Assembly (NCBI GenBank): GCA_036253495.1
Contig: GCA_036253495.1_4125.1
Length of the DNA: 64,000 nucleotides
From: a phage
Reading direction: 5' to 3' (one strand)
How positions within the stretch are numbered: the stretch's first letter is position 1; every line of letters starts with the position of its first letter. The notes under the pieces are model-generated. The model was not told where the DNA came from and searched no databases. It was given only the letters and a program-made list of their open reading frames with translations. Shown here piece after piece: positions 11,151 to 24,599 of the stretch. Position numbers and translations under genes: made by a program.

Positions 11151-11176
11151 AAAAGAAAAGCACTCCGAAGAGTGCT
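11151..11176 (-). terminator. rho-independent terminator after gp25-like gene
   Basis: Hairpin AAGCACTC-TTCG-GAGTGCTT followed by T-rich tract on minus strand. Confidence 0.5.
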
Positions 11177-11183
11177 TAGTAAA

Positions 11184-11579
11184 TTATAATTTAGATGTTG
11201 TGAATGTCGCCATTCTATTATTACTTCTGGCATCAAACACTATAGTTAGTTGTTCTAATTTATCAAGCATTACATACTCTAAAATTATATCCAAACGATA
11301 ACCATATTCAACATTACTAACTGTTAGATTTTTTAAATTCAAACGTGGGTCTAATGAAATAATTCTACGAGCGTCAGCTTCTAAAAGATTTTTTGTATTA
11401 TAACCATCAAGTTCAAAAATCAAATCCCAAGCAATGAAACCATAATCAGCATCAAATGCTCTTTCACCTTTCTTTGTATTGAAGTGGTTCATCAAATCCT
11501 GTCTCACCAACTCAGCATCATACAGAGTTTGTGTTTTACCCACAACAGGAGTAGAGAAACCTTTAAAAACTATTGCCAT
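11184..11579 (-). CDS. baseplate wedge subunit, gp25/GPW family
   Basis: 131 aa; size and motif pattern (FDADYGFIAWDLIFE...LDPRLNL...GYRLDIILEYV) match the gp25/GPW lysozyme-fold baseplate family. Confidence 0.7.
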   Translation of the reverse strand: MAIVFKGFSTPVVGKTQTLYDAELVRQDLMNHFNTKKGERAFDADYGFIAWDLIFELDGYNTKNLLEADARRIISLDPRLNLKNLTVSNVEYGYRLDIILEYVMLDKLEQLTIVFDARSNNRMATFTTSKL

Positions 11580-11592
11580 AGACTTTCCTCAT

Positions 11593-12081
11593 TTATACGG
11601 ATTCAACAATCCTTGCCATTTTTTCAGCACGAGAAGTTGTTTGACGATACCAAGCGGAATCACGCATTTCTTTGCCAGCGGTTTTATAATCACCACGACC
11701 CAATGCTGCCATTGCTTTCTTAAAGTTCAATACACGAGATTTACCCATTTGGAATACCATCATCCAAAGTACACGTTGTACTTGAATAGGTGCAGTCATT
11801 CCGAATTGATCGTAAATCTCTTTTGCTTCTCTGTATGCATTTAGGGAATCTTTTTGAAGTAATGCTTCAGCTTCAGCTTCCGTTAGCCCTGCACTGAAAT
11901 TTTCACCTTTTAGTACTAAGTGACCATATCCAATGGTATCTAGTCCTAGGCTATCTTTATAAACTCTGAATTTACCATTCTTGAAATAACCTAATTTAGT
12001 TTGGAAAGCAATAGTACCTTCAAACTCTTTAATTTCTTTCAAATACTGTGCATCATCAGGTTTAATTTCCCATTTACTCAT
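11593..12081 (-). CDS. e: T4-type lysozyme (endolysin, GH24)
   Basis: 162 aa; YKDSLGLDTIGYGHL, VFQMGKSRV and SAWYRQTTSRAEKMARIV align to T4 lysozyme motifs (YKDTEGYYTIGIGHL, VFQMGETGV, SRWYNQTPNRAKRVI). Confidence 0.85.
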   Translation of the reverse strand: MSKWEIKPDDAQYLKEIKEFEGTIAFQTKLGYFKNGKFRVYKDSLGLDTIGYGHLVLKGENFSAGLTEAEAEALLQKDSLNAYREAKEIYDQFGMTAPIQVQRVLWMMVFQMGKSRVLNFKKAMAALGRGDYKTAGKEMRDSAWYRQTTSRAEKMARIVESV

Positions 12082-12115
12082 ATACTTCTCCTATAATATT
12101 TATTGGATAAAATAT

Positions 12116-14779
12116 TTATTGACATGCCTCAATTCTACGTGCCATTAACTCTGCACGACGAGTTGTTTGACGATACCAAGCGGAACTACGTATATGAGCA
12201 GCAGCACCACGATAATCACCTTTAGCTAAACATCCAAGCATACCCTTGAATTTTTGAACTTTGTATTTGCCCATTTGGAATACCATTTGACATAGTACTT
12301 GTTGAGCAATAACAGGTGTTTTTAAATCCCAGGCCGCATATATTGATTTGGCATCATTAATTGCTTGCGTACTGTCTCGTACTAATATTGCTTCAGCTTC
12401 TGCTTCAGTTATACCACCAGAAAAATCTTCACCTCCGACAATAAGGTGTCCATATCCAATTGTAGGGAATCCACGGCTATCAATATAACGCCAGAATTTT
12501 CCATTTCTGAAATATCCAAGTGCTGTTTGATATTGGATAGTACCTTCGTGTTCTTTAAGTTCGGATATAAATTGGGAATCACCCGGAGCAACTTTCCATC
12601 CAACGGCAGTTTTATCAACATTACCTACATTATAATTTTGTTCAACTTTTGGAGCGGTTCCTGCATTTCGAGGCTTACGTTCTCTACGACGAGGAACATG
12701 ACGAGAACCACGTTGTGAATAACCAGTTCCAATAGTTCGTATGCGAGTTGATATTACCAATTCATCACTATCAGCAGATGGTCTGACCACATCTTTAGGG
12801 TTATTTTGTGTTGATGGTTGACCACCAATTAATGTTTTATTCGCCGCAGCAGAACCCTGACCAGTTACAGTTGTGTAGAATAATCCAGGATCAACTGAAC
12901 CACTAAAACCATAGATATTAGATGAGCGAACTCTTATTTCAAATCGTAATATACCATTAGCAGTTCCTATTACTTGTCCTTTTTCAACAACATCTTTATT
13001 GAATAGGTCAGAAGTTAAACCATAGAAAACAGATTTATAACCAGATTTATGCTCAACAATAAGAGCATCACCACTGATACCAACAATCCCACCATCTGGT
13101 GCAACCACACTTCCACGGGCTTGAATTTCCCATCCACTACTATCACGCTTGGTTCCATTCTCGGTCGTTACACCCTTACCCCAATAACCATTCTGGCGAA
13201 TAGTACCGCTACATGGCATAAGCATATGCAAACCTTCAAACGTCTGCGAATAACCAGTCATTCCTGGTTCAGCCGCCATTAAATCTTGTGTTTGAACTTC
13301 ACTTGTCTCTGGGGCATAATTTACAAATTGAATTGCTTCTGTTTCTTGTTGCTCTGCAAGTGTAGGTTGAACATCATTTGCTGGTTGTGGCTCAACTGGA
13401 GATGTTGTACTACCTTGACCACCACCACTTATACCAGGATCAACCCTATCACCGTGGTTTTCTGCATCTTTCCAGTTAGCAATCATATGAATGTGGTCAT
13501 TAAGACCCACTGATGGAGTTTTGAAGTCAGGAGCCATGAATGCAGCACTACCACTATTACCTGCACTATCAACCGTTAGGTTTTGACCACCACCACTAAT
13601 GTTAACGGATGAACCACCAATAACGTTTGCTGAGGATGAACCTTTAATAGATGCAGTTGACCCAGCCGTAATATCAGTACTGCTACCACTTTGAAGACGT
13701 AATGAAGCACCAGTAACCAAACGAAGATCAGCACCAGAATTAATTACAACCTGACCATTGACCTTAGCATCCAAATTACCGACCAATTCCAGTTTGGTAT
13801 TTCCACCAACACGAGTATTGAAGTCTTGCCCACTTTCAATATTATAAGAACGACCTGCAACCATGTTAATATCTTGACCTGCACGAATGTTTATGTTTTT
13901 ATCACAGTGCATTTCAATATCACCATCGCCAGTGAATTTAATACGAGCCGTACCATCACGGTTAATTAATAAAACATTACCAGTGGCTTCAGAAATAAGA
14001 AGTTGTGCACCACTACGTGTTTTAATAACAATACCTTCATTCTTTCTGGAACCAACACGAGTGTCATTAACTGGGTTGTTAAATTGTGTGTCTTGGTATC
14101 CATCAGGGTCTTGATCCCATGTTGGCTTGGTCAATTCTTCTTCTGTATATCCATCATCAAGAATAAAACTATTACCACGAGGTGTACTCATACCATATAC
14201 AGTACTGGTTGTTTGACGAGTACTGCTGCGGTTTGCAACACCTGCTTCATCATCGTATAATAAGTTTTGTTTTTTCAATCCTTCAACAGCAGGAACGTTA
14301 ATATATTTGTCTTGCATGTCAGTTGTGATTGTGTTACGATCATAATCAGTTACTGGTAATGGCATATCAGTACCATTGTAATTGGTATCCGCAGTTGCCA
14401 TTCCAGGAACCATTGTATTCATACGTTGGTCATAAACACATCCAATCCAGTAAGCTTGGAATGTACGTGCTTGTGCAAAAATAACAACAACAGTACATCC
14501 CACATCTGGTGGAACGGCCCAAAAACCATAACCCTTTGGATATTGTCCATAACTATCTGCACTCGGTATTCCTGGAGTTTTGCCAGCAAACGGAGCCATA
14601 TAAGAAGCTTCAATCCATGAATCTTTAGAGTTTTTATCACTTTGTGAACCTTGTATCCATACTTTTAGCTTACCAGATTTCGTAGGATCACGGTTATCCA
14701 TAACGGTTGCTAATTGTGGATAAGATGGGTCAAAACGACCCAACTGTTCCTTTGCATACTTTTTACTTGTATCTGCCAT
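12116..14779 (-). CDS. baseplate hub/spike protein (gp5-like) with internal M23-peptidase-like region and C-terminal T4-type lysozyme domain
   Basis: 887 aa; Gly/Ser-rich repetitive central region (beta-helix-like); segment GYWGKGV...HKSGYKSVFYGL...GQVIGTANGILRFEI resembles LytM/M23; C-terminal 150 aa paralogous to the adjacent lysozyme. Confidence 0.7.
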   Translation of the reverse strand: MADTSKKYAKEQLGRFDPSYPQLATVMDNRDPTKSGKLKVWIQGSQSDKNSKDSWIEASYMAPFAGKTPGIPSADSYGQYPKGYGFWAVPPDVGCTVVVIFAQARTFQAYWIGCVYDQRMNTMVPGMATADTNYNGTDMPLPVTDYDRNTITTDMQDKYINVPAVEGLKKQNLLYDDEAGVANRSSTRQTTSTVYGMSTPRGNSFILDDGYTEEELTKPTWDQDPDGYQDTQFNNPVNDTRVGSRKNEGIVIKTRSGAQLLISEATGNVLLINRDGTARIKFTGDGDIEMHCDKNINIRAGQDINMVAGRSYNIESGQDFNTRVGGNTKLELVGNLDAKVNGQVVINSGADLRLVTGASLRLQSGSSTDITAGSTASIKGSSSANVIGGSSVNISGGGQNLTVDSAGNSGSAAFMAPDFKTPSVGLNDHIHMIANWKDAENHGDRVDPGISGGGQGSTTSPVEPQPANDVQPTLAEQQETEAIQFVNYAPETSEVQTQDLMAAEPGMTGYSQTFEGLHMLMPCSGTIRQNGYWGKGVTTENGTKRDSSGWEIQARGSVVAPDGGIVGISGDALIVEHKSGYKSVFYGLTSDLFNKDVVEKGQVIGTANGILRFEIRVRSSNIYGFSGSVDPGLFYTTVTGQGSAAANKTLIGGQPSTQNNPKDVVRPSADSDELVISTRIRTIGTGYSQRGSRHVPRRRERKPRNAGTAPKVEQNYNVGNVDKTAVGWKVAPGDSQFISELKEHEGTIQYQTALGYFRNGKFWRYIDSRGFPTIGYGHLIVGGEDFSGGITEAEAEAILVRDSTQAINDAKSIYAAWDLKTPVIAQQVLCQMVFQMGKYKVQKFKGMLGCLAKGDYRGAAAHIRSSAWYRQTTRRAELMARRIEACQ

Positions 14780-16929
14780 TACTCACCACCTGGGTTTATT
14801 ATACTATCTTTACGTTTAAGTGCACGAGCGACAATAGCACCTTGAATTTGTTGCGTGAAAGTACCGTTTGTACCAAAATCATGAATTATTTTGTTTACGC
14901 GATAGATTGTTTCGTTGAATGTGGTTGGCGTGGTTATGTCCAAAATACCAGTATTATCATTAATAGAAACAACTGGTTGTAATTTCAATAACAAATATGC
15001 TTCAGTTGAAATATAATTTGCATATTTGAAATCCTCTGGATTTATATATAATGCTTCACCATTTACCAACATATCCAAATATTGAAGATATGCATGATCA
15101 CCCCACCCCAACCAATATGGGTCACCAATTACACGCATATCCAACTTACACATAAATGGACGGTTATAATAGTTGTCGCGTATTTTACGTCTGTCCATTT
15201 CATACGTACTACTATTATCGTTATCAGATGCCGATAAAGTTGTATGGTTGTTTGTAGCTTCAGTTGGTATAGTGAATATTTCACCCCTACGATCACCAAT
15301 TCCATCAGCACCCATGTCATTTTCTTCATATACACTACGATAATCTTCAATGTATTCAGGAAGGACATGAACTTTGTAATTCATATAAGCATCTTGTTCT
15401 TCTTGATTACCCACACCCATCGCATTTTTTAATTGCTCATCTACTTCATTTAGTAATGCAGTTTGAGCTTGTGTTATAATTTCCCCTTTACTTCGTGCTT
15501 TTCTTATATCACTAGTCTTATTCCACGCATCTAATGGGTTACTATATTGAACCCCTTGTATGGTTAATTCCTGTGATGCATGTGTACCACTTCTGTTACC
15601 TTGGTCTTGTATTGGACCTGGGTTACGTGTTGTAGCTACATAAAATTGCTGATCGAAATTCATATCCAAATCTAATATTTCATTATTCAATCCACTGAAT
15701 TGATAATTGTATATTTTCATTCTTAACTTTTCTTCATTATCTCTAGGGTCAAGATAACGTTCAGAGTTTTCTAGGAACGTTTCGAAGTTAAAGTTTTCTG
15801 GTTGTAAATCCGATTCATGAACAACATCACCAATTCGAAAACGAACAATATTAAAAATAACTTTATATACTGATGTATTACGTAAATTATCAAAACCAAC
15901 ATATTGTTTAAGTGGGATTATATTAACAAATTGGCGAACGCTAGTACTATCACCTTCACGAACAGTACATGCATCAATAACATCATCAATTATTCTTGAT
16001 ATTGGTGTACTTGGATTCCATGAAAAGTTTTTAGAACCCTGTGAACCATTTTTTGTTGAAGTTACTTCAGTCATTTGTTTAGAATCATAGTTTATGAACA
16101 TATCAGCAAGTTCAGGTGCAACTTTAAATTCAAAAAATTTACCTTCTGCCAGTTCTGGAAATTTCATACACAAATAACCATACTGTTGTTCTGACATTTC
16201 ATTTAACTTATCTTCCAAATCATAACAAAATGCTCCAAATTGTGCAGCAGTACATGAGAATGTTTCTTTTAATGTCCATTCTACGTTATCAACCAATGCA
16301 GCACGATTGTGTACTAAGTTAATGGTATATAACATTGTACTACCAGTTGCACTGGCACTTGCTTTAACGTTGTTAATCTTCACTGACCAACGTTTTGTAG
16401 TGTTTGGTATGACTTGAGGAACACCATCTTCATTATAACCAATGAACTTTAGTTCAAGGATTAATGGTAAATCCATAAATTTATGATAACGAAGTTTATT
16501 ACTTAATGATATCAACTCATCGTAAAAACTCATACTATTGTTTTCTGACATACTTATTGAAGCAGTATTAAATGTATAGTTTGTTGTCATACCAGGAGTT
16601 GAGGGACCAGCTTGCGTCATCTGAACATTTGTGATATTATACTTACCAGTAACGCCACTTTCAGTGATTACATAACGTTGGACTTCAGCATCTGGATTTT
16701 CCCAGAACATCTTAAAGTCATCTTTATCTAAGGCAAACAAGGTAAAGTGCCACGTTGCTGAATTGTATTTTAATAAAACATTTTCATTGTCAATAATAAA
16801 ATCAGAAATCTTTTTATCGTCATAAATTCTATCAGTATGTGTGCTTTGAATTGGTTTTGATTGTACGTTACTTACTTTAGCACCATATTTGTTACTCTGA
16901 CTAGGGTCTAGTCCAATTTTAGTATCCAT
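14779..16929 (-). CDS. baseplate hub-associated protein (possibly gp27-like), function uncertain
   Basis: 716-aa ORF immediately upstream of and overlapping the spike gene start; assignment by synteny only. Confidence 0.3.
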   Translation of the reverse strand: MDTKIGLDPSQSNKYGAKVSNVQSKPIQSTHTDRIYDDKKISDFIIDNENVLLKYNSATWHFTLFALDKDDFKMFWENPDAEVQRYVITESGVTGKYNITNVQMTQAGPSTPGMTTNYTFNTASISMSENNSMSFYDELISLSNKLRYHKFMDLPLILELKFIGYNEDGVPQVIPNTTKRWSVKINNVKASASATGSTMLYTINLVHNRAALVDNVEWTLKETFSCTAAQFGAFCYDLEDKLNEMSEQQYGYLCMKFPELAEGKFFEFKVAPELADMFINYDSKQMTEVTSTKNGSQGSKNFSWNPSTPISRIIDDVIDACTVREGDSTSVRQFVNIIPLKQYVGFDNLRNTSVYKVIFNIVRFRIGDVVHESDLQPENFNFETFLENSERYLDPRDNEEKLRMKIYNYQFSGLNNEILDLDMNFDQQFYVATTRNPGPIQDQGNRSGTHASQELTIQGVQYSNPLDAWNKTSDIRKARSKGEIITQAQTALLNEVDEQLKNAMGVGNQEEQDAYMNYKVHVLPEYIEDYRSVYEENDMGADGIGDRRGEIFTIPTEATNNHTTLSASDNDNSSTYEMDRRKIRDNYYNRPFMCKLDMRVIGDPYWLGWGDHAYLQYLDMLVNGEALYINPEDFKYANYISTEAYLLLKLQPVVSINDNTGILDITTPTTFNETIYRVNKIIHDFGTNGTFTQQIQGAIVARALKRKDSIINPGGE

Positions 16930-16940
16930 GTGTTACTCCA

Positions 16941-17255
16941 TTAACCTACACTGCGTGTACCATTAAGGTATGATTGAATGCGTTGACTTGACGGTACTCT
17001 AATAGTTATTCCAGTTTGAAAGTTGTAAATCGGGTCTTCACCCAATAAATCAGGATTAAGTAAGGCGAATACATAATATAAACGCTCATTACCATACATT
17101 TCATACGCTAAACGCCACGGTTGGTGGTTGTACTTTGCAGGTATTTCATAAAAATCATCAGTATCTGCTGGAATTATGTCACGAGGTAAGGTATAATCCA
17201 AATACCACGTCTGTTTAACTTTTGCATAAGGTGAATATTGACTATAGTTTGACAT
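16941..17255 (-). CDS. small baseplate protein with LysM-like motif
   Basis: 104 aa; YEIPAKY...YGNERLYYVFALLNPDL...GITIRVP resembles a LysM fold signature; located in baseplate operon. Confidence 0.35.
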   Translation of the reverse strand: MSNYSQYSPYAKVKQTWYLDYTLPRDIIPADTDDFYEIPAKYNHQPWRLAYEMYGNERLYYVFALLNPDLLGEDPIYNFQTGITIRVPSSQRIQSYLNGTRSVG

Positions 17256-17986
17256 TAAATGAATCCTCCATTGCGAAGCATATCACCACGCTTAAATGCG
17301 TTAAGATTAAACTTCTTAGTCATAAATTCTGATGTTGGTTGCTCTTCTAATTGAATAGTTACCGATATCTTTTGTGGAACCCACACTTCATCTTGTGGAT
17401 TCATGTACCCAGAACTTCTTAATTGTTCAAAAAATTGTCTACTATCCATATCGGACAAATTAAAAGTACTGTTACTACTATCCAATGGTACTTGAATATA
17501 AGAAACATCATTTGGATAGGTAAAATTATATGATTTCATTACTACAGGAATATCATTATATGTATAACGACCATACCCACTTAGTAATAGGATTGGTGGT
17601 GGTGCACCAGGAACAGCTAAATCGGGGTTATTAGCTGATGCAGCTTTTCTACCAAAATCCATCAATGATACAGAGCGAATAAAATGCATACATGCTAAAG
17701 TGTATAGAGCTTCAGCAGCAGTATTTGCATAAAATTCACCTTGTATCGTGAAAATAGTATTACTTGTATTTTTATAGTTGTTATAGTTACTATTTGAATG
17801 CACAGGAGACTGTGTTTCATACTGAATACTTCTTTGTTCAGTGATTGTTGGCGTTACGGTCCATACCAAACCATTGGTTGGACGCAAAAACGATAGTAGT
17901 GTTGGGTTGGCTCCGTCACCAAAATCCCCATACACATAGTTAGCACCAGCGGCTTTAGGTCTTAGTCGGATTCGACGATCAATCAT
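17255..17986 (-). CDS. baseplate/tail structural protein, unknown
   Basis: Track ORF 17255..18013; start moved to the second ATG (17986), which has GGAG 9 nt upstream, because the first ATG sits only 6 nt from the TATAAATA motif. Confidence 0.4.
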   Translation of the reverse strand: MIDRRIRLRPKAAGANYVYGDFGDGANPTLLSFLRPTNGLVWTVTPTITEQRSIQYETQSPVHSNSNYNNYKNTSNTIFTIQGEFYANTAAEALYTLACMHFIRSVSLMDFGRKAASANNPDLAVPGAPPPILLLSGYGRYTYNDIPVVMKSYNFTYPNDVSYIQVPLDSSNSTFNLSDMDSRQFFEQLRSSGYMNPQDEVWVPQKISVTIQLEEQPTSEFMTKKFNLNAFKRGDMLRNGGFI

Positions 17987-18019
17987 TTGTGTTACTCCAT
18001 TACAAGGAAACATTTGAAG

Positions 18020-18027
18020 TATTTATA
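18020..18027 (-). promoter_or_regulatory. late promoter TATAAATA for minus-strand baseplate operon
   Basis: Exact T4 late-promoter consensus on minus strand about 33 nt upstream of ATG 17986. Confidence 0.5.
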
Positions 18028-19977: not shown

Positions 19978-22125
19978 ATGTTAAACATTACACGTATAAC
20001 AATGAGGAATTTCTTTTCCTTTGGTAATGCACCACAAGTTATTGATTTAAATGGTGCTGACATATCTTTAGTACTCGGTCAAAACAATGATGCTGTCATT
20101 GAAGGTGGTGATAGTTCTGGTCGTCGTAACGGTGTAGGTAAAAGTGCAATTATTCAAGGTCTTGTTTTTGGACTATTTGGAAAAAGTATTGGTAACGATA
20201 TTAAAATTCCAAACTTAGTTAATAAAACAAATGCTAAAAATTGTGAAGTTACCGTTGAGTTCGAGAAAGACGGTATACAATACCTTGTTGAGCGTGGGCG
20301 TAGTCCCACATATTTCAATTTCATCACTCTAGGTCAGGACAATAAAGTTCTCGATGAATCAAGAGGTGAAAAGAAAGATACACAAGAAGATCTAAATGAA
20401 ATTCTAGGAATCTCTCAATTACTTTTTGAGCACATTGTAGTACTGAATGCTAACGTTGAACCTTTCCTTGCTCTTTCTTCACAGAAACAACGTGATATGA
20501 TTGAAGAGCTATTAGGTATTACCCAATTAACAGAGAAAGCTGAACTGTTAAAGGATATGAACAAAGAGTCAAAACGTTTAGCTGACCAAGAGAAGTTTAA
20601 AATTGAAACAGTTGCAGCAAGTAATGAACGCATTCAACGCAGCATTGAAACCTTACAGGAACAGGCTAATAAGTTTGAAATTGATAAGGCTAATAGAGTG
20701 CAAAAACTAAAAAGTGAATTGGAAGTATACAGTACTTTTGTATTTTCTGATTTATATGCTGCTGCTGAAGAGAAAGAAGAAGCACTTCTACACATCTCTA
20801 AACGTTTACAACTCGAACGTAGAGTTCAAGAACTTGCAGTGAAATATGATCAGTACGATAGAGAACTAGCCACTAATAAAAATATTATTCAGCATAGTAT
20901 CGATAAATTAAAAACTATTGATATTGAATCTGAATTAAAAAACCATGAAGAAATGGAACTGTGGAAACAACTAGAATCTATCTTAAAAGATAATCAGTTG
21001 CAAAAGAATTTCAAAACACAGAAACTAAATTCACTAAATCTTTCGTTGAATGCTCATATTAAATCTCTTACAGCAGAAGAAGAGAAATTAAAATCAGTTG
21101 AGGATAGTAAATGTCCACTTTGTTTATCAGAGTTGGAGCATAATGAGCATGGTAATGGTATAAAAGATAAGATTAATGATACTATTCGTCTAATCAGAGA
21201 AAATATAAGTAAGGTTGAGTTGGAAATTGCAACACTATCAGATGAAATCAATGCAATTGAGATATTTGATATGCCCCCTAAACCTGTAACTTTCTATAAT
21301 ACCCTTACCGAAGCCCAAATGCATGACCATAAGCTACAAGAACTTATTAAAAAGAGTGAGGAAGAACAAATTAACATCTACCGTGATGAACTAATGTCTT
21401 CTTATGAGGCTCTTGATGCATTAGAAGTAAAGGAAGTTCCAGATGCGTTGAATAAATCAGAAGTTAAAGAGTTAGAAATGACTTTTAACTCACTTACTCA
21501 ACAACTTGAACGCGAAATGAACACAACTAATACGTTTATTAGTCAGATTAATACTTTAACAACCGATTCGTTGGTTCCTATTGATTATACTGACTTCAAT
21601 AACCTTGAAAAATTGGCTAATCACCAAGATTTCTTAGTTAAACTATTGCTCAATAAGGATAGTTATGTTCGTAAACGTATCATTGAACAAAATATCTCAT
21701 ATTTGAACTCCAGATTGCAGTACTATATTGATATGTGTGGTTCAGAACACAATGTGGTCTTCTTGAATGACCTTAGTGTTGAGATTGAGAAGAGTGGACA
21801 GTACTTTGACTATAAACAATTGAGTCGTGGAGAACGAACACGTGTTAATATTGCATTATCATGTGCTTTCCGCGATACTTATGAATCATTATATCAAAGT
21901 ATTAATATTCTTATCATAGATGAGATGATAGATCAGGGTCTTGATTCAAGTGGTGTTCTAAGAGTATGGTCAATCTTCCAGGATATGGCTGCTGTACGTG
22001 GTAAAAACGTATATGCAATATCTCACAGAGAAGAATTACTATCTAAAACAGAAAAAATCCTTAAAGTGGTAAAAGAAGACGGTTTCAGTACTGTTGAATA
22101 TGCTACTCTTGATGATATTTTCTAA
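19978..22125 (+). CDS. 46: Rad50/SbcC-like ATPase (T4 gp46-like)
   Basis: N-terminal Walker A (GRRNGVGKS), long coiled-coil middle, C-terminal signature/Walker B region (LSRGERTRVNIAL...LIIDE). Confidence 0.85.
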   Translation: MLNITRITMRNFFSFGNAPQVIDLNGADISLVLGQNNDAVIEGGDSSGRRNGVGKSAIIQGLVFGLFGKSIGNDIKIPNLVNKTNAKNCEVTVEFEKDGIQYLVERGRSPTYFNFITLGQDNKVLDESRGEKKDTQEDLNEILGISQLLFEHIVVLNANVEPFLALSSQKQRDMIEELLGITQLTEKAELLKDMNKESKRLADQEKFKIETVAASNERIQRSIETLQEQANKFEIDKANRVQKLKSELEVYSTFVFSDLYAAAEEKEEALLHISKRLQLERRVQELAVKYDQYDRELATNKNIIQHSIDKLKTIDIESELKNHEEMELWKQLESILKDNQLQKNFKTQKLNSLNLSLNAHIKSLTAEEEKLKSVEDSKCPLCLSELEHNEHGNGIKDKINDTIRLIRENISKVELEIATLSDEINAIEIFDMPPKPVTFYNTLTEAQMHDHKLQELIKKSEEEQINIYRDELMSSYEALDALEVKEVPDALNKSEVKELEMTFNSLTQQLEREMNTTNTFISQINTLTTDSLVPIDYTDFNNLEKLANHQDFLVKLLLNKDSYVRKRIIEQNISYLNSRLQYYIDMCGSEHNVVFLNDLSVEIEKSGQYFDYKQLSRGERTRVNIALSCAFRDTYESLYQSINILIIDEMIDQGLDSSGVLRVWSIFQDMAAVRGKNVYAISHREELLSKTEKILKVVKEDGFSTVEYATLDDIF

Positions 22126-22137
22126 TATAATGAATAA

Positions 22138-22161
22138 AGGGAGCCTTAGCTCCCTTTTTTT
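22138..22161 (+). terminator. rho-independent terminator after gp46-like gene
   Basis: AGGGAGC-CTTA-GCTCCCT hairpin followed by TTTTTTT. Confidence 0.6.
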
Positions 22162-22637
22162 ATATCTAACATGTTTAATTTGCCGTCCTTAATAAGCTTC
22201 CTAGCCTGTTTTACACGAGCAGTAGTGTTGCTACAAGGGACAACTCCTAACCCTTCCAGAATCGCGTTTTGCTGCGTTGCTGGGAGCCTTTTAAACTTAT
22301 TAACATCCACAGTTAATGCCGTGTGATGAATCACTTGCTCTTCTGGTGGAATATTATTGTTCTTTTCAAGATAATCTGCCAGATTTCTTAGTACTTCATG
22401 AAGAGGTTTATCAGTTAAATGACGCAAGTATCGATTGAAAGAGTTCTGCACCTTACCTTCCCATGCGTTAACCTCATTTTGTAGAACTTCTCTACAATGC
22501 TGGTTTTCGAAGTGATAGTGGTCGAGTACTGGTTTCTTAATCGGTTCCTTGATTATAGGATCAATACCTTTTTGCTTTTTTAATAATTCATTTCTGTACG
22601 TAGCAGCTTCCTTACTATCTTTAAGTCTTCGTTTCAT
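22146..22637 (-). CDS. Endonuclease VII-like (His-Me finger) protein lacking the canonical Zn-ligand cysteines
   Basis: 163 aa; LDHYHFEN and NAWEGKVQNSFNR align with T4 Endo VII LDHDHELN and NAAEGQMKHKFNR; only one Cys present. Confidence 0.45.
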   Translation of the reverse strand: MKRRLKDSKEAATYRNELLKKQKGIDPIIKEPIKKPVLDHYHFENQHCREVLQNEVNAWEGKVQNSFNRYLRHLTDKPLHEVLRNLADYLEKNNNIPPEEQVIHHTALTVDVNKFKRLPATQQNAILEGLGVVPCSNTTARVKQARKLIKDGKLNMLDIKKGS

Positions 22638-22731
22638 AATGTGCCTTAGATCTAAGTTAGTTTATGAAATATTTATGAAATACATTCCTAAGAAATTTTT
22701 AAGTACTTTTTTATAAAAAAGATTAGATATT

Positions 22732-22761
22732 TTGAGACACTTTTAAATTGCGTGCTATAAT
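22732..22761 (+). promoter_or_regulatory. strong sigma70-type promoter (TTGAGA-18 nt-TGcTATAAT) firing into ORF-free region
   Basis: -35 TTGAGA at 22732-22737, extended -10 TGCTATAAT at 22753-22761. Confidence 0.6.
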
Positions 22762-22766
22762 GTTTC

Positions 22767-23246
22767 ATGTAGTACTGACAATCCTGTTGAATGCAGAAAT
22801 GCATATAAATTAGAACCTAATCCACTCGAAAATGTAGAGGGTAGATGAGCAGTTCAACAGTGCGATGAGCAAAAGAAACCCGTTAGATGTGGGCATATTA
22901 TGAACCCCTCACGGCGACACGGCTCAATAAAGAACTCCGATAAGCATACAGAGAGTTCCTCGATAGATGTATAAGGATCGCACCTTACCAGATATGCTAA
23001 GGGAGTTTGATGATTCATTTCATTAAACAGCCTGAAGTTTGATTGTATAGACTTTCAGGTGAGTGTCAGGATGTTTAAGACTGACGACCGTTGCACATGA
23101 CTGCGATAGAGAGAAACAGAGCAACCCGCTTTCGTTCTTAATATTTTTTACAATATAATTACGTTTAAATTTTAAGAAATTCGCAATACAATAATACCGA
23201 TGCCATCAGCGTCAAGAAACAGAGACTTAATTGTCTCTTTTTTATT
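22767..23246 (+). ncRNA. candidate non-coding RNA (about 480 nt) between promoter and terminator; identity unknown
   Basis: No ORF longer than about 25 codons with an RBS on either strand; several stem-loops (e.g. CCTGAAGT...ACTTTCAGG, GTCAG...CTGAC); ends at hairpin AGAGAC-TTAATT-GTCTCT plus T-run at 23220-23246. Confidence 0.3.
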
Positions 23247-23473
23247 ATCTTCATTCCCCTGCGGGGGGATGAAATATCCTCAACAAATCCCGTCAAGTAT
23301 TAAATCATTTAAAGTTCTTTATAATTATATTAAAATGAATATGAGTTAACGTAGTTAACGAATATTCTTCAGCTAACGAATGAAATGAGTTAGATGAGTT
23401 CAATATAAATCAAATGAATTCCTTCAAGAATAAATCTTTTAAGATCATAATTTCTTTCATCTACTTTGTAAGT

Positions 23474-23519
23474 AAAAACCCAAAAAAACAAAAACAAAAA
23501 ACCAGCAACAATGTGCTGG
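23474..23519 (-). terminator. rho-independent terminator (minus strand)
   Basis: Minus-strand hairpin CCAGCA-CATTGT-TGCTGG followed by a long T-run (plus-strand A-rich tract 23474-23501). Confidence 0.6.
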
Positions 23520-23532
23520 CTTCTTATGAGTA

Positions 23533-23694
23533 TTAGTGCTTCTCGTTCATCTTCTTTACTTTCTTATTGTATGCCTTAATAAGCATATCTCTGTCATTTA
23601 CTGGCATATTAAGTAGAGTTGCATAATCGACATTATCTACATAAACAGCAGCATCCATAAGGGCATTTTTAATATCTGATTTATTCAACTCCAT
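23533..23694 (-). CDS. small ORF (53 aa) or -1 frameshift extension of the upstream 295-aa protein
   Basis: Frame open from the slippery T TTT TTC site inside the upstream gene to a TAA 14 nt before the terminator; internal ATG at 23694 with weak RBS. Confidence 0.3.
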   Translation of the reverse strand: MELNKSDIKNALMDAAVYVDNVDYATLLNMPVNDRDMLIKAYNKKVKKMNEKH

Positions 23695-23711
23695 ATCATC
23701 CAGAAGTTCTT

Positions 23712-24599
23712 TTATTTCTTCTGGGTTTGAGAAGAGAAGCTGAGATCGAAAAAATGAGTAGGGTCATACTTTAATCCAGTAAGTTCCCATTGATGCTGAC
23801 ATTCAATACATTCAACTTCCATTGTATGCGATACACCAATCTCTAGTACTTCATCCATTTTCTCTCTGATTTGCTTGATCACTTCTTTTGATTGAGTACC
23901 TAACCATTCACTTATGAATTTCTTATCTGATACTTCATCACCATCAGGAGTAATTACCTTATCAATAACTCCAGCAATCATATCAAAGTTTAGTTGTGCC
24001 ATGTTTTCAAATACTTCAGAAAACATTTTAATTTTATCATCTTCAGAAATATCAATAGTACTTTCAAGATACTTAGTTTTTTGCTGTTCAGCTAACATAC
24101 GTTGAGAAAACTCTGAATATTCTTTCCAAGTAAGTGGTCTGAACTGAAGAGACAAACCATTATTAAGATCAATACTAGGAATTTCAGTAAAAGATTCTGC
24201 CGTTTCCAATAGATAAGAAAGATCACGTTCAAAACGGCCTTCTTTGGAACATGATGGACATACGACATTGACATCATAACTGGTTTCTTTGGATGCTAAC
24301 TTGATAGCAATAAGAATTTGCTCAACATCATTGACAAAAAGCTCATCTGCGTTTAGAATGTTTGGTACACAGTTTTCGATAACAGATGACACTGCACTAC
24401 CATTGAGTAACATATCAGGTGTATTGAGCATCATTTCGTCACGAGCACTACGAGCACAGACACCACATTTAATGCCTTTGCTCCCCAATACACCATCTTT
24501 GTACTGGAAAATGTTGTTAGTGACGAGTTTAGTACTAATTTCTTCGATTTTTGTGTATTTTGCTAACGGGTTCATTGACATAATACTTTCTCCATGCAA
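23712..24599 (-). CDS. hypothetical protein with three CxxC pairs (possible Zn-binding)
   Basis: 295-aa ORF; CGVC, CPSC and CIEC motifs; no recognisable NTPase motif. Confidence 0.6.
   Translation of the reverse strand: MHGESIMSMNPLAKYTKIEEISTKLVTNNIFQYKDGVLGSKGIKCGVCARSARDEMMLNTPDMLLNGSAVSSVIENCVPNILNADELFVNDVEQILIAIKLASKETSYDVNVVCPSCSKEGRFERDLSYLLETAESFTEIPSIDLNNGLSLQFRPLTWKEYSEFSQRMLAEQQKTKYLESTIDISEDDKIKMFSEVFENMAQLNFDMIAGVIDKVITPDGDEVSDKKFISEWLGTQSKEVIKQIREKMDEVLEIGVSHTMEVECIECQHQWELTGLKYDPTHFFDLSFSSQTQKK

Follow-up and report, generated by a model that had tools for sequence, protein, structure and literature searches.

Genomic Context of the Spike Locus

The window analyzed here is a stretch of 64,000 nucleotides originating from an Escherichia phage A4-like genome (Asteriusvirus), with 99.6% identity to ON286972. 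An apparent cluster of 938 differences from GenBank A4 at 22-24 kb was dismissed as a shift of register caused by indels in the ungapped comparison. The central baseplate spike gene (12116-14779, minus strand) encodes a product of 887 aa and is the orthologue of A4_584, RaK2 gp078, CBB_240 and phAPEC6 gp241. Downstream lie a gene for a stand-alone GH24 lysozyme of 162 aa (A4_583; 11593-12081, minus strand) and, after a gap of 13 nt containing an RBS, a gp25-like baseplate wedge gene (11184-11579, minus strand; Pfam GPW_gp25, 36.6 bits), the final gene of the transcription unit, which ends at a terminator-like hairpin (11158-11177, minus strand). The two reading frames for the spike and the lysozyme, and an exact 25-nt repeat that they share, lie where an earlier sequence-only reading of the window had placed them.

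Directly upstream of the spike is a gene for a 716-aa virion structural protein (14779-16929, minus strand), the stop codon of which overlaps the spike ATG (TAATG). Orthologues of this protein, phAPEC6 gp240 and CBB_241, were found by mass spectrometry (MS) (PMC5259590 for CBB); sequence searches of Pfam, NCBIfam and the PDB returned no match to it, and it is possibly the hub partner of the spike. The spike gene sits within a baseplate gene module, with gp25-like and baseplate wedge genes on its flanks, and a single transcript would cover the spike, lysozyme and gp25-like genes. A sigma-70 promoter scan gave matches at background level only, and the window shows no enrichment of the T4 late-promoter motif TATAAATA, with 5 copies observed versus 8.9 expected. 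A single copy of this motif at 18020-18027 is found a short distance ahead of the gene that opens the minus-strand block, a placement that constitutes weak evidence.

Domain Architecture of the Central Spike

The N-terminal half of the 887-aa protein begins with an OB-fold of the gp5/gpV/VgrG type (aa ~20-116; 14432-14722, minus strand), identified by Pfam, phmmer and AF2. Phage_base_V (PF04717) matches aa 23-116 with 29.4 bits against a cut-off of 23.8, phmmer aligns the spike to the OB region and helix of VgrG proteins with E values of 1e-5 to 2e-4, and the AF2 monomer model places beta strands in this region with pLDDT 70-83. A Gly/Ser-rich repetitive beta-helix follows (aa ~250-415; 13535-14032, minus strand), supported by DUF2345 repeats at aa 280-321 in Pfam, by phmmer matches to the VgrG beta-helices 9jg8 and 4uhv, and by pLDDT values of 80-88. 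[quoted passage not shown]

Just past the helix is the motif H429-I-H431 (13487-13495, minus strand), a putative Fe-binding spike apex in which both histidines are conserved in 88/88 homologues. The association of HxH motifs with iron binding and a pointed apex is taken from PMC12407873, which also describes such motifs within phage fibres. The position directly after the helix is that seen in P2 gpV, but the motif is not a terminal apex, as 456 residues follow it. A short relative, P0090, stops about 100 aa past the same GLNDHIH motif, and the apex region is modelled weakly in the AF2 monomer (pLDDT 55-62). We infer that HxH marks the spike apex; because this invariant motif lies mid-protein, the enzymes would be post-apex cargo.

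The region beyond the apex consists of two domains separated by linkers. Linker 1 (aa 446-512; 13244-13444, minus strand) is Pro/Gln/Glu-rich, poorly conserved and partly disordered, with a mean identity of 0.37 versus 0.55-0.70 for the domains in the family alignment of 88 homologues, and with pLDDT <50 at aa 451-455 and 495-510. Linker 2 (aa 651-725; 12605-12829, minus strand) carries a conserved ELVxxT...SIGSGYxQRGSxxxP motif, in which V675, G691 and P696 are invariant, and a basic disordered RRRERKPR segment, with pLDDT <50 at 698-715.

The C-terminal domain (aa 726-887; 12119-12604, minus strand) is a GH24 (T4-type) lysozyme with putative catalytic residues Glu745, Asp767 and Thr773, conserved in 87/88, 87/88 and 55/88 homologues, respectively; the catalytic Glu was assigned by family alignment and by its location where the first helix ends. 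The Pfam Phage_lysozyme family matches aa 765-882 of the spike and also the 162-aa protein, both proteins scoring above threshold for PF00959 and adopting the T4L fold. Equivalents of Glu11, Asp20 and Thr26 are present in both, and the 162-aa lysozyme aligns to T4L including D20, T26 and the SRWYNQTP motif. The C-terminal domain of the spike is accordingly predicted from its sequence to be an intact muramidase. In distant relatives this C-terminal cargo differs, being GH24, GH19 or M15. The earlier description of a gp5-like protein with a Gly/Ser-rich repetitive middle, followed by an LytM/M23-like segment and, at the C-terminus, a lysozyme of T4 type, is borne out, the spike being of the gp5/gpV type.

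A Degenerate LytM Domain in the Spike

The segment between the linkers (aa 513-650; 12830-13243, minus strand) has a LytM/M23 beta-sandwich fold in the AF2 model (pLDDT 93), with DipM, SpoIIQ and EnvC as its best structural matches. The Pfam match to Peptidase_M23 (PF01551) at aa 555-608 is sub-threshold, scoring 20.1 bits where the cut-off is 28.7. The middle 311 aa alone gave no match in a word-indexed homology search, a full-length query being needed. The LytM residues H210, D214, H260, H291 and H293 correspond to S547, E551, G587, I610 and R612 of the spike; MAFFT misplaced the LytM HxxxD against the family N-terminus, and both of its positions were set by the G-x-D register and the fold. 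None of these five catalytic and Zn-binding positions is kept as His or Asp in any of the 88 family members, and the loop that bears the M23 HxH is deleted. The residues of an active M23 enzyme, namely Zn ligands and catalytic His, are thus lacking, and the combination of a LytM fold with absent metal ligands is that of the EnvC/NlpD/DipM class. A non-canonical active site was considered and rejected, since the sole invariant polar residues (H577, E614, R616 and D630) occupy structural positions that are likewise conserved in active M23 enzymes.

The central domain appears from these substitutions to be a degenerate, non-enzymatic LytM domain, leaving the spike with one hydrolase (GH24) rather than two. 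The sequence-only reading had proposed that the virion delivers two peptidoglycan hydrolase activities; the fold it anticipated is present, but the catalytic His/Asp ligands are absent in 88/88 homologues, an outcome which that reading had itself named as counting against the proposal.

Because the LytM-like domain equals the lysozyme domain in conservation (mean identity 0.57 and 0.56, with 0.37-0.40 for the linkers), it is most likely a binding or regulatory module acting on peptidoglycan or a protein partner. Searching the literature turned up no LytM domain in a central spike. By analogy with cellular LytM regulators, the domain could be a delivered regulator rather than filler, activating host autolysins (AmiA/B/C, lytic transglycosylases) at the entry site or gating the lysozyme of the spike in cis; we regard this as a long shot, but if true, the phage would co-opt host control of cell-wall remodelling to open the wall.

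Age of the Lysozyme Duplication

The neighbouring gene had been recognized as a second copy of the spike lysozyme, and the two are indeed paralogous, with 55% protein identity over 158 aa and 60% DNA identity. Third-position identity is 50% and dS is 1.18, so that nucleotide identity beyond the 25-mer has reached saturation, and omega is 0.12-0.26 in both lineages. Both dS and nucleotide identity within the A4-like genome are the same as for cross-genome paralogue pairs, and nucleotide identity among within-genome paralogues is 0.53-0.65 versus 0.70-0.76 for cross-genus orthologues. Orthologues of the 162-aa lysozyme are syntenic in seven other phages, the pair is syntenic in at least four phage lineages, and the copies cluster by gene and not by genome in a tree covering Asteriusvirus, Alcyoneusvirus, Mimasvirus and Munch. 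After recent duplication or under concerted evolution, dS would be low and paralogues would resemble one another more than they resemble orthologues; neither is seen. The duplication is, judging by the synteny, the by-gene tree, the 60% nucleotide identity and a dS of about 1.2, ancient.

Origin of the 25-nt Repeat

The 25-mer AGTTGTTTGACGATACCAAGCGGAA occurs exactly twice in the window, in the stand-alone lysozyme gene (11635-11659, plus strand) and in the spike gene (12161-12185, plus strand), with 0 occurrences expected in shuffles, and it encodes the residues S-A-W-Y-R-Q-T-T (SAWYRQTT) in both copies. The run is a mild outlier, with P(run>=25)=0.0008 in a codon-usage simulation; in 56 cross-genome paralogue pairs, no run exceeds 21 nt, the maximum reached, and the second-longest run shared by the two copies here is 17 nt. 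The repeat overlies the most conserved motif of GH24 (T4L SRWYNQTP). At window position 12182, GenBank A4 has the Ser codon TCA in the spike copy where the strain of the window has TCC, so that the shared run in GenBank A4 is 21 nt. The TCC codon is rare (5% of Ser codons), and is found in both copies here and in no orthologue.

These observations suggest that three factors account for the identity: purifying selection acting on the SxWYxQT motif, a bias in codon usage, and a single recent synonymous mutation, TCA to TCC. A competing explanation is that a micro-conversion of at most 25 nt from the stand-alone gene to the spike gene made this change, and that such events may recur sporadically in the phage group. 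The rare TCC common to both copies, together with a GENECONV-style permutation P=0.005 for A4, is compatible with conversion over a very short tract; the same test gave P=0.0004 for K64-1 at another site, and at two of the three strain differences in the lysozyme domain the window has the base of the paralogue. Against this, the third difference runs the opposite way, many paralogue differences lie between the two matching changes, which do not form one tract, and there is a single informative base, at which a point mutation would match the paralogue by a roughly 1-in-3 chance. The permutation null also ignores the clustering of constrained sites, and small P values in several genomes suggest that it is too liberal. 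Micro-conversion is therefore improbable, and selection with a point mutation is the preferred explanation; more generally, motif conservation and codon bias suffice to produce short exact repeats between old paralogues, making such repeats an unreliable sign of gene conversion.

The sequence-only reading had taken the repeat as indicating recent duplication or ongoing gene conversion, a view at odds with the 60% nucleotide identity, the dS of 1.18, the separate orthologous clades and the next-longest run of 17 nt. Its full model, a spike with an M23 endopeptidase and a lysozyme beside a recently duplicated or homogenised copy, has in its favour the weak Pfam M23 match, the true LytM fold and a 25-mer that exceeds simple chance. 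It is nonetheless barely credible: the M23 residues are missing throughout the family with the HxH loop deleted, the nearest structural neighbours are inactive LytM regulators, the copies are as divergent as cross-genome pairs and group by gene, and the 25-mer is only 21 nt in the sister strain.

Role of the Stand-Alone Lysozyme

The 162-aa lysozyme would be enzymatically active by analogy with its orthologue LysUE1, which is reported to be muralytic in vitro and to lyse cells. Spike orthologues have been detected in virions by MS (phAPEC6; CBB, PMC5259590), whereas orthologues of the 162-aa protein were undetected in the virion proteomes of phAPEC6 and of Rak2-like phages as summarised in PMC5259590. 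Non-detection by MS of a small, low-copy protein is no proof of its absence from virions. The gene had earlier been called the endolysin, an unproven name: it lies inside the baseplate operon, and for this phage group the authors of the CBB paper predicted that another lysozyme, of SAR type, is the endolysin (PMC5259590).

The 162-aa protein is most likely a soluble lysin. That it is instead a low-copy baseplate component or assembly factor is unlikely but merits consideration, given its tight spacing from the spike gene on one side and the gp25-like gene on the other with no terminator in between, the retention of this position across genera, and the separate SAR-type endolysin. This alternative sits poorly with the virion proteomes, with the four small ORFs that lie between spike and lysozyme in K64-1, and with LysUE1, which, expressed by itself, behaves as an active and soluble muramidase.

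Proposed Model

Most likely, the 887-aa protein is the trimeric central baseplate spike of a jumbo myophage that is A4-like and of the RaK2 type, comprising a needle and post-apex cargo with one GH24 muramidase and a dead LytM domain, accompanied by an ancient lysozyme paralogue and a 25-mer produced by selection and mutation. The N-terminal half would form a gpV/VgrG-type needle, with a hub-docking OB-fold, a triple beta-helix and an iron-binding pointed HxH apex, and the ~450 residues past the apex would be tethered cargo, arranged as flexible linker, dead LytM-fold domain, second linker and GH24 muramidase. Sheath contraction would drive the spike through the outer membrane, bringing three muramidase copies to the peptidoglycan, where, by analogy with T4 gp5, they may make a local opening for the tail tube. 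Enzymes located beyond a conserved HxH apex motif raise the structural question of where about 150 kDa of cargo fits in the baseplate. The relevance of these results is mainly one of annotation hygiene, as the label 'M23 peptidase' should be replaced by degenerate LytM domain, and a virion endopeptidase should not be assumed.

Comparison with Known Systems

The spikes RaK2 gp078, CBB_240 and phAPEC6 gp241 belong to the same family as the A4-like spike (57-80% identity), with the same length and domain order, and RaK2 ORF073 and CBB_239 are the same neighbouring 162-aa lysozyme in Rak2-like jumbo phages. Papers on RaK2 gp078 and CBB_240 have described the odd architecture, the weak M23 match in the central region and the existence of three lysozyme paralogues, leaving the flanks of the beta-helix unassigned or suggesting a possible M23 peptidase (PMC3622015, PMC5259590). 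The spike architecture and lysozyme paralogues are thus already known, having been in print for orthologues since 2013. Beyond those papers, we describe the degenerate LytM fold and, as modest additions, the invariant mid-protein HxH apex motif and the swappable C-terminal cargo of distant relatives.

Phage T4 likewise has an OB-fold/beta-helix spike with a GH24 lysozyme (gp5) and a soluble T4-type paralogue, gene e, elsewhere in its genome. T4 gp5 has no LytM domain, carries its lysozyme after the OB-fold and before the beta-helix, and is tipped by another protein, the PAAR-like gp5.4. The A4-like spike does not share this domain order, as the sequence-only reading had noted; it runs OB - beta-helix - HxH - LytM-like - lysozyme, placing the enzyme after the helix and HxH, and the gene for the soluble paralogue is its neighbour within one operon. 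The iron-loaded spikes P2 gpV and phi92 gp138 likewise combine an OB-fold and beta-helix with HxH directly after the helix, but in P2 gpV the motif is near the C-terminus, whereas in the A4-like spike it precedes the long cargo region and Fe binding is putative. 'Evolved' VgrG proteins of T6SS, such as V. cholerae VgrG-3 with its C-terminal peptidoglycan-degrading domain, also join a beta-helix spike to a C-terminal cell-wall hydrolase, and the A4-like helix resembles VgrG in sequence; the A4-like protein differs in being a phage structural protein that lacks a fused gp27-like module. EnvC, NlpD, DipM and SpoIIQ share the fold and the loss of Zn ligands with the LytM domain of the spike, but these are cellular regulators that bind and activate amidases or other partners, whereas the phage domain forms part of one polypeptide with a spike and a lysozyme.

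Genomic Context of the Spike and Lysozyme Genes

Megablast assigns the region to Escherichia phage A4 (ON286972, genus Asteriusvirus, 355 kb), of which the window represents a 99.6%-identical strain and not the deposited genome; some 48 other jumbo phages infecting E. coli, Klebsiella or Salmonella are matched at ~77%. ORF calling places the 887-aa spike gene at 12116-14779 on the minus strand, preceded by a 716-aa virion structural gene (14779-16929) whose stop codon overlaps the spike ATG. The 162-aa stand-alone lysozyme gene (11593-12081, minus strand) lies 34 nt after the spike gene, with an AGGAG ribosome-binding site, and is followed after 13 nt by a gp25-like gene (11184-11579, minus strand) and then by a baseplate wedge gene (1154 aa). 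The first terminator-like hairpin after the spike gene is located 3′ of gp25 (11177-11158); given this and the tight spacing, the stand-alone lysozyme is co-expressed with the baseplate genes. A T4-type late-promoter motif, TATAAATA, at 18020-18027 (minus strand) closely precedes the opening gene of the minus-strand baseplate block, which runs to the terminator at 11158-11177; the motif shows no enrichment across the window overall. The spike-lysozyme module is not rigid: four small ORFs are inserted between the two genes in phage K64-1 (comparison locus L003, 2891-4384), and an ORF annotated as group I intron-associated lies between the gp25-like and baseplate wedge genes in phage 121Q (locus L008, 5470-6234).

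Over 15000-17999, within the 716-aa gene and upstream of it, differences from GenBank A4 reach 41, 15 and 13 per kb, compared to 1-8 elsewhere in the block; the 716-aa virion protein may have recombined or be undergoing faster evolution. An apparent block of 938 mismatches at ~22000-24000 proved to be a register shift from small indels, with gapped alignment giving 17 gap positions and 99.3% identity.

Domain Architecture of the Spike Protein

Pfam domains in the spike include an above-threshold Phage_base_V OB-fold (aa 23-116), DUF2345/VgrG-type repeats (aa 280-321) and a Phage_lysozyme domain (aa 765-882), and residues 1-470 are similar to T6SS VgrG proteins in the OB region and beta-helix alike. 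The full-length AlphaFold2 model (mean pLDDT 72.8) is confident for the OB strands (aa 20-115), the beta-helix (aa ~250-410) and two globular domains (aa 513-650 and 726-887), weak at aa 411-460, and disordered at 451-455, 495-510 and 698-715. Two histidines, H429 and H431 (LNDHIH), are invariant in an alignment of the 88-member spike family. An HxH motif following the helix forms the iron-binding apex where a spike has no separate tip protein, and is found inside fibres too (PMC12407873); a 534-aa relative ends ~100 residues past the same GLNDHIH motif. Together, these observations suggest that residues 1-445 form a gpV/VgrG-type needle and residues 446-887 an extension past the apex.

Within the extension, the Peptidase_M23 match (aa 555-608) is sub-threshold, scoring 20.1 vs. 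28.7 bits. The equivalents of LytM H210, D214, H260, H291 and H293 are S547, E551, G587, I610 and R612, the first two assigned by eye; MAFFT misplaced that motif. Over the 88 homologues examined these five positions are mostly R, I, D/G, V and any residue, respectively, never a conserved His/Asp at the M23 catalytic and zinc positions, and in the spike the HxH-bearing loop of LytM and lysostaphin is deleted. These substitutions and the deletion contradict the sequence-only reading, in which the virion may deliver two hydrolase activities. The domain nevertheless matches the lysozyme domain in conservation (mean identities to A4 of 0.57 and 0.56, respectively, with linkers at 0.37-0.40), which points to a functional but non-catalytic LytM domain from which M23 chemistry is absent. 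LytM/M23 folds are common among phage tape-measure, internal and lysin proteins.

The variable, partly disordered linker at aa 651-725 (12605-12829) contains a conserved motif, ELVxxTxVxSIGSGYxQRGSxxxP, in which V675, G691 and P696 do not vary, and after it the strongly basic segment RRRERKPR; together these may serve in processing or docking.

Age of the Lysozyme Duplication and Origin of the 25-mer

The spike and 162-aa lysozyme are paired in the same baseplate module of PBECO4, 121Q, Turkey3, K64-1, Munch, CBB and GAP32. The two lysozyme copies within a genome share 53-65% DNA identity (60.5% in A4, 50% at third codon positions), with cross-genera orthologues 70-76% identical. In a neighbour-joining tree, the stand-alone clade is apart from the spike copies, and sequences group by gene, not genome. 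The A4 paralogues have a dS of 1.18 and dN of 0.45, as do cross-genome paralogue pairs, and each lineage is under purifying selection (omega 0.12-0.26). Synteny, identities, tree and dS indicate that the duplication predates the split of these genera and that there is no concerted evolution; the proposal of recent duplication or ongoing gene conversion is at odds with the 60.5% identity, the dS and the gene-wise tree. By tblastn, A4 and most Asteriusvirus/Alcyoneusvirus genomes have three lysozyme-like places, but Mimasvirus and Munch have two; the RaK2 ORF029-like third copy falls outside the window, in another part of the genome.

The 25-mer shared by the two genes was correctly located, occurring exactly twice (11635-11659 and 12161-12185) with none expected in shuffled sequence. 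It encodes SAWYRQTT, a motif conserved even in T4 lysozyme. Three tests make it a mild outlier: a codon-usage simulation (P(run ≥ 25) = 0.0008), 56 cross-genome spike vs. stand-alone comparisons (longest run 21 nt) and a GENECONV-style permutation (P = 0.005 in A4), the null of which is too liberal, as P is 0.0004 in K64-1, at another site, and 0.02-0.07 in several genomes. Decisively, the GenBank A4 record has just one copy of the 25-mer; its spike codon is TCA vs. TCC in the window (12182), and its shared run is 21 nt, the same as the cross-genome maximum. The 25-mer is thus owed to one very recent synonymous change, at a single base. The spike lysozyme domain differs between the strains at 12182, 12140 and 12332, each time by a synonymous change at a third codon position, and the stand-alone gene is the same in both strains. 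At two of these sites it is the window that agrees with the paralogue, and at the other the GenBank strain; many paralogue differences lie between the two sites matching in the window. Because both copies carry the rare codon TCC (5% usage), a conversion tract of ≤25 nt is conceivable, although unlikely, and nothing requires one.

Role of the Stand-Alone Lysozyme

Virion proteomics detected the spike orthologues phAPEC6 gp241 and CBB_240, and the 162-aa lysozyme orthologue is not among the proteins detected in either phage. In the CBB paper the endolysin is predicted to be a different protein, the SAR-type lysozyme CBB_187, which has a 121Q homologue (PMC5259590). Given these results and co-expression with baseplate genes, designation of the 162-aa gene as the endolysin is unproven. 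We favour a soluble lysin; that the protein is a baseplate component, present at low copy, seems unlikely.

Comparison with Known Spikes

The spike architecture and paralogues are real but already known: the RaK2 paper of 2013 counted gp078 among the largest lysozymes of baseplates, remarked on its "very unusual domain composition" and reported three paralogous lysozymes (PMC3622015), and the CBB paper of 2017 described a domain order unlike gp5 and a weak central M23 hit (PMC5259590). The evidence contradicts the two bolder inferences, namely that there are two enzymatic activities and that a duplication or conversion was recent, and the additions made here are small: the LytM domain is degenerate, the invariant HxH motif would put the enzymes beyond the putative apex, and the 25-mer has a single-base explanation. 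In more distant relatives the OB-fold and helix are retained, and the protein ends in GH24, GH19 or M15 without the LytM block; C-terminal cell-wall hydrolases are therefore a modular cargo of this spike type, which in this respect resembles evolved VgrG proteins.
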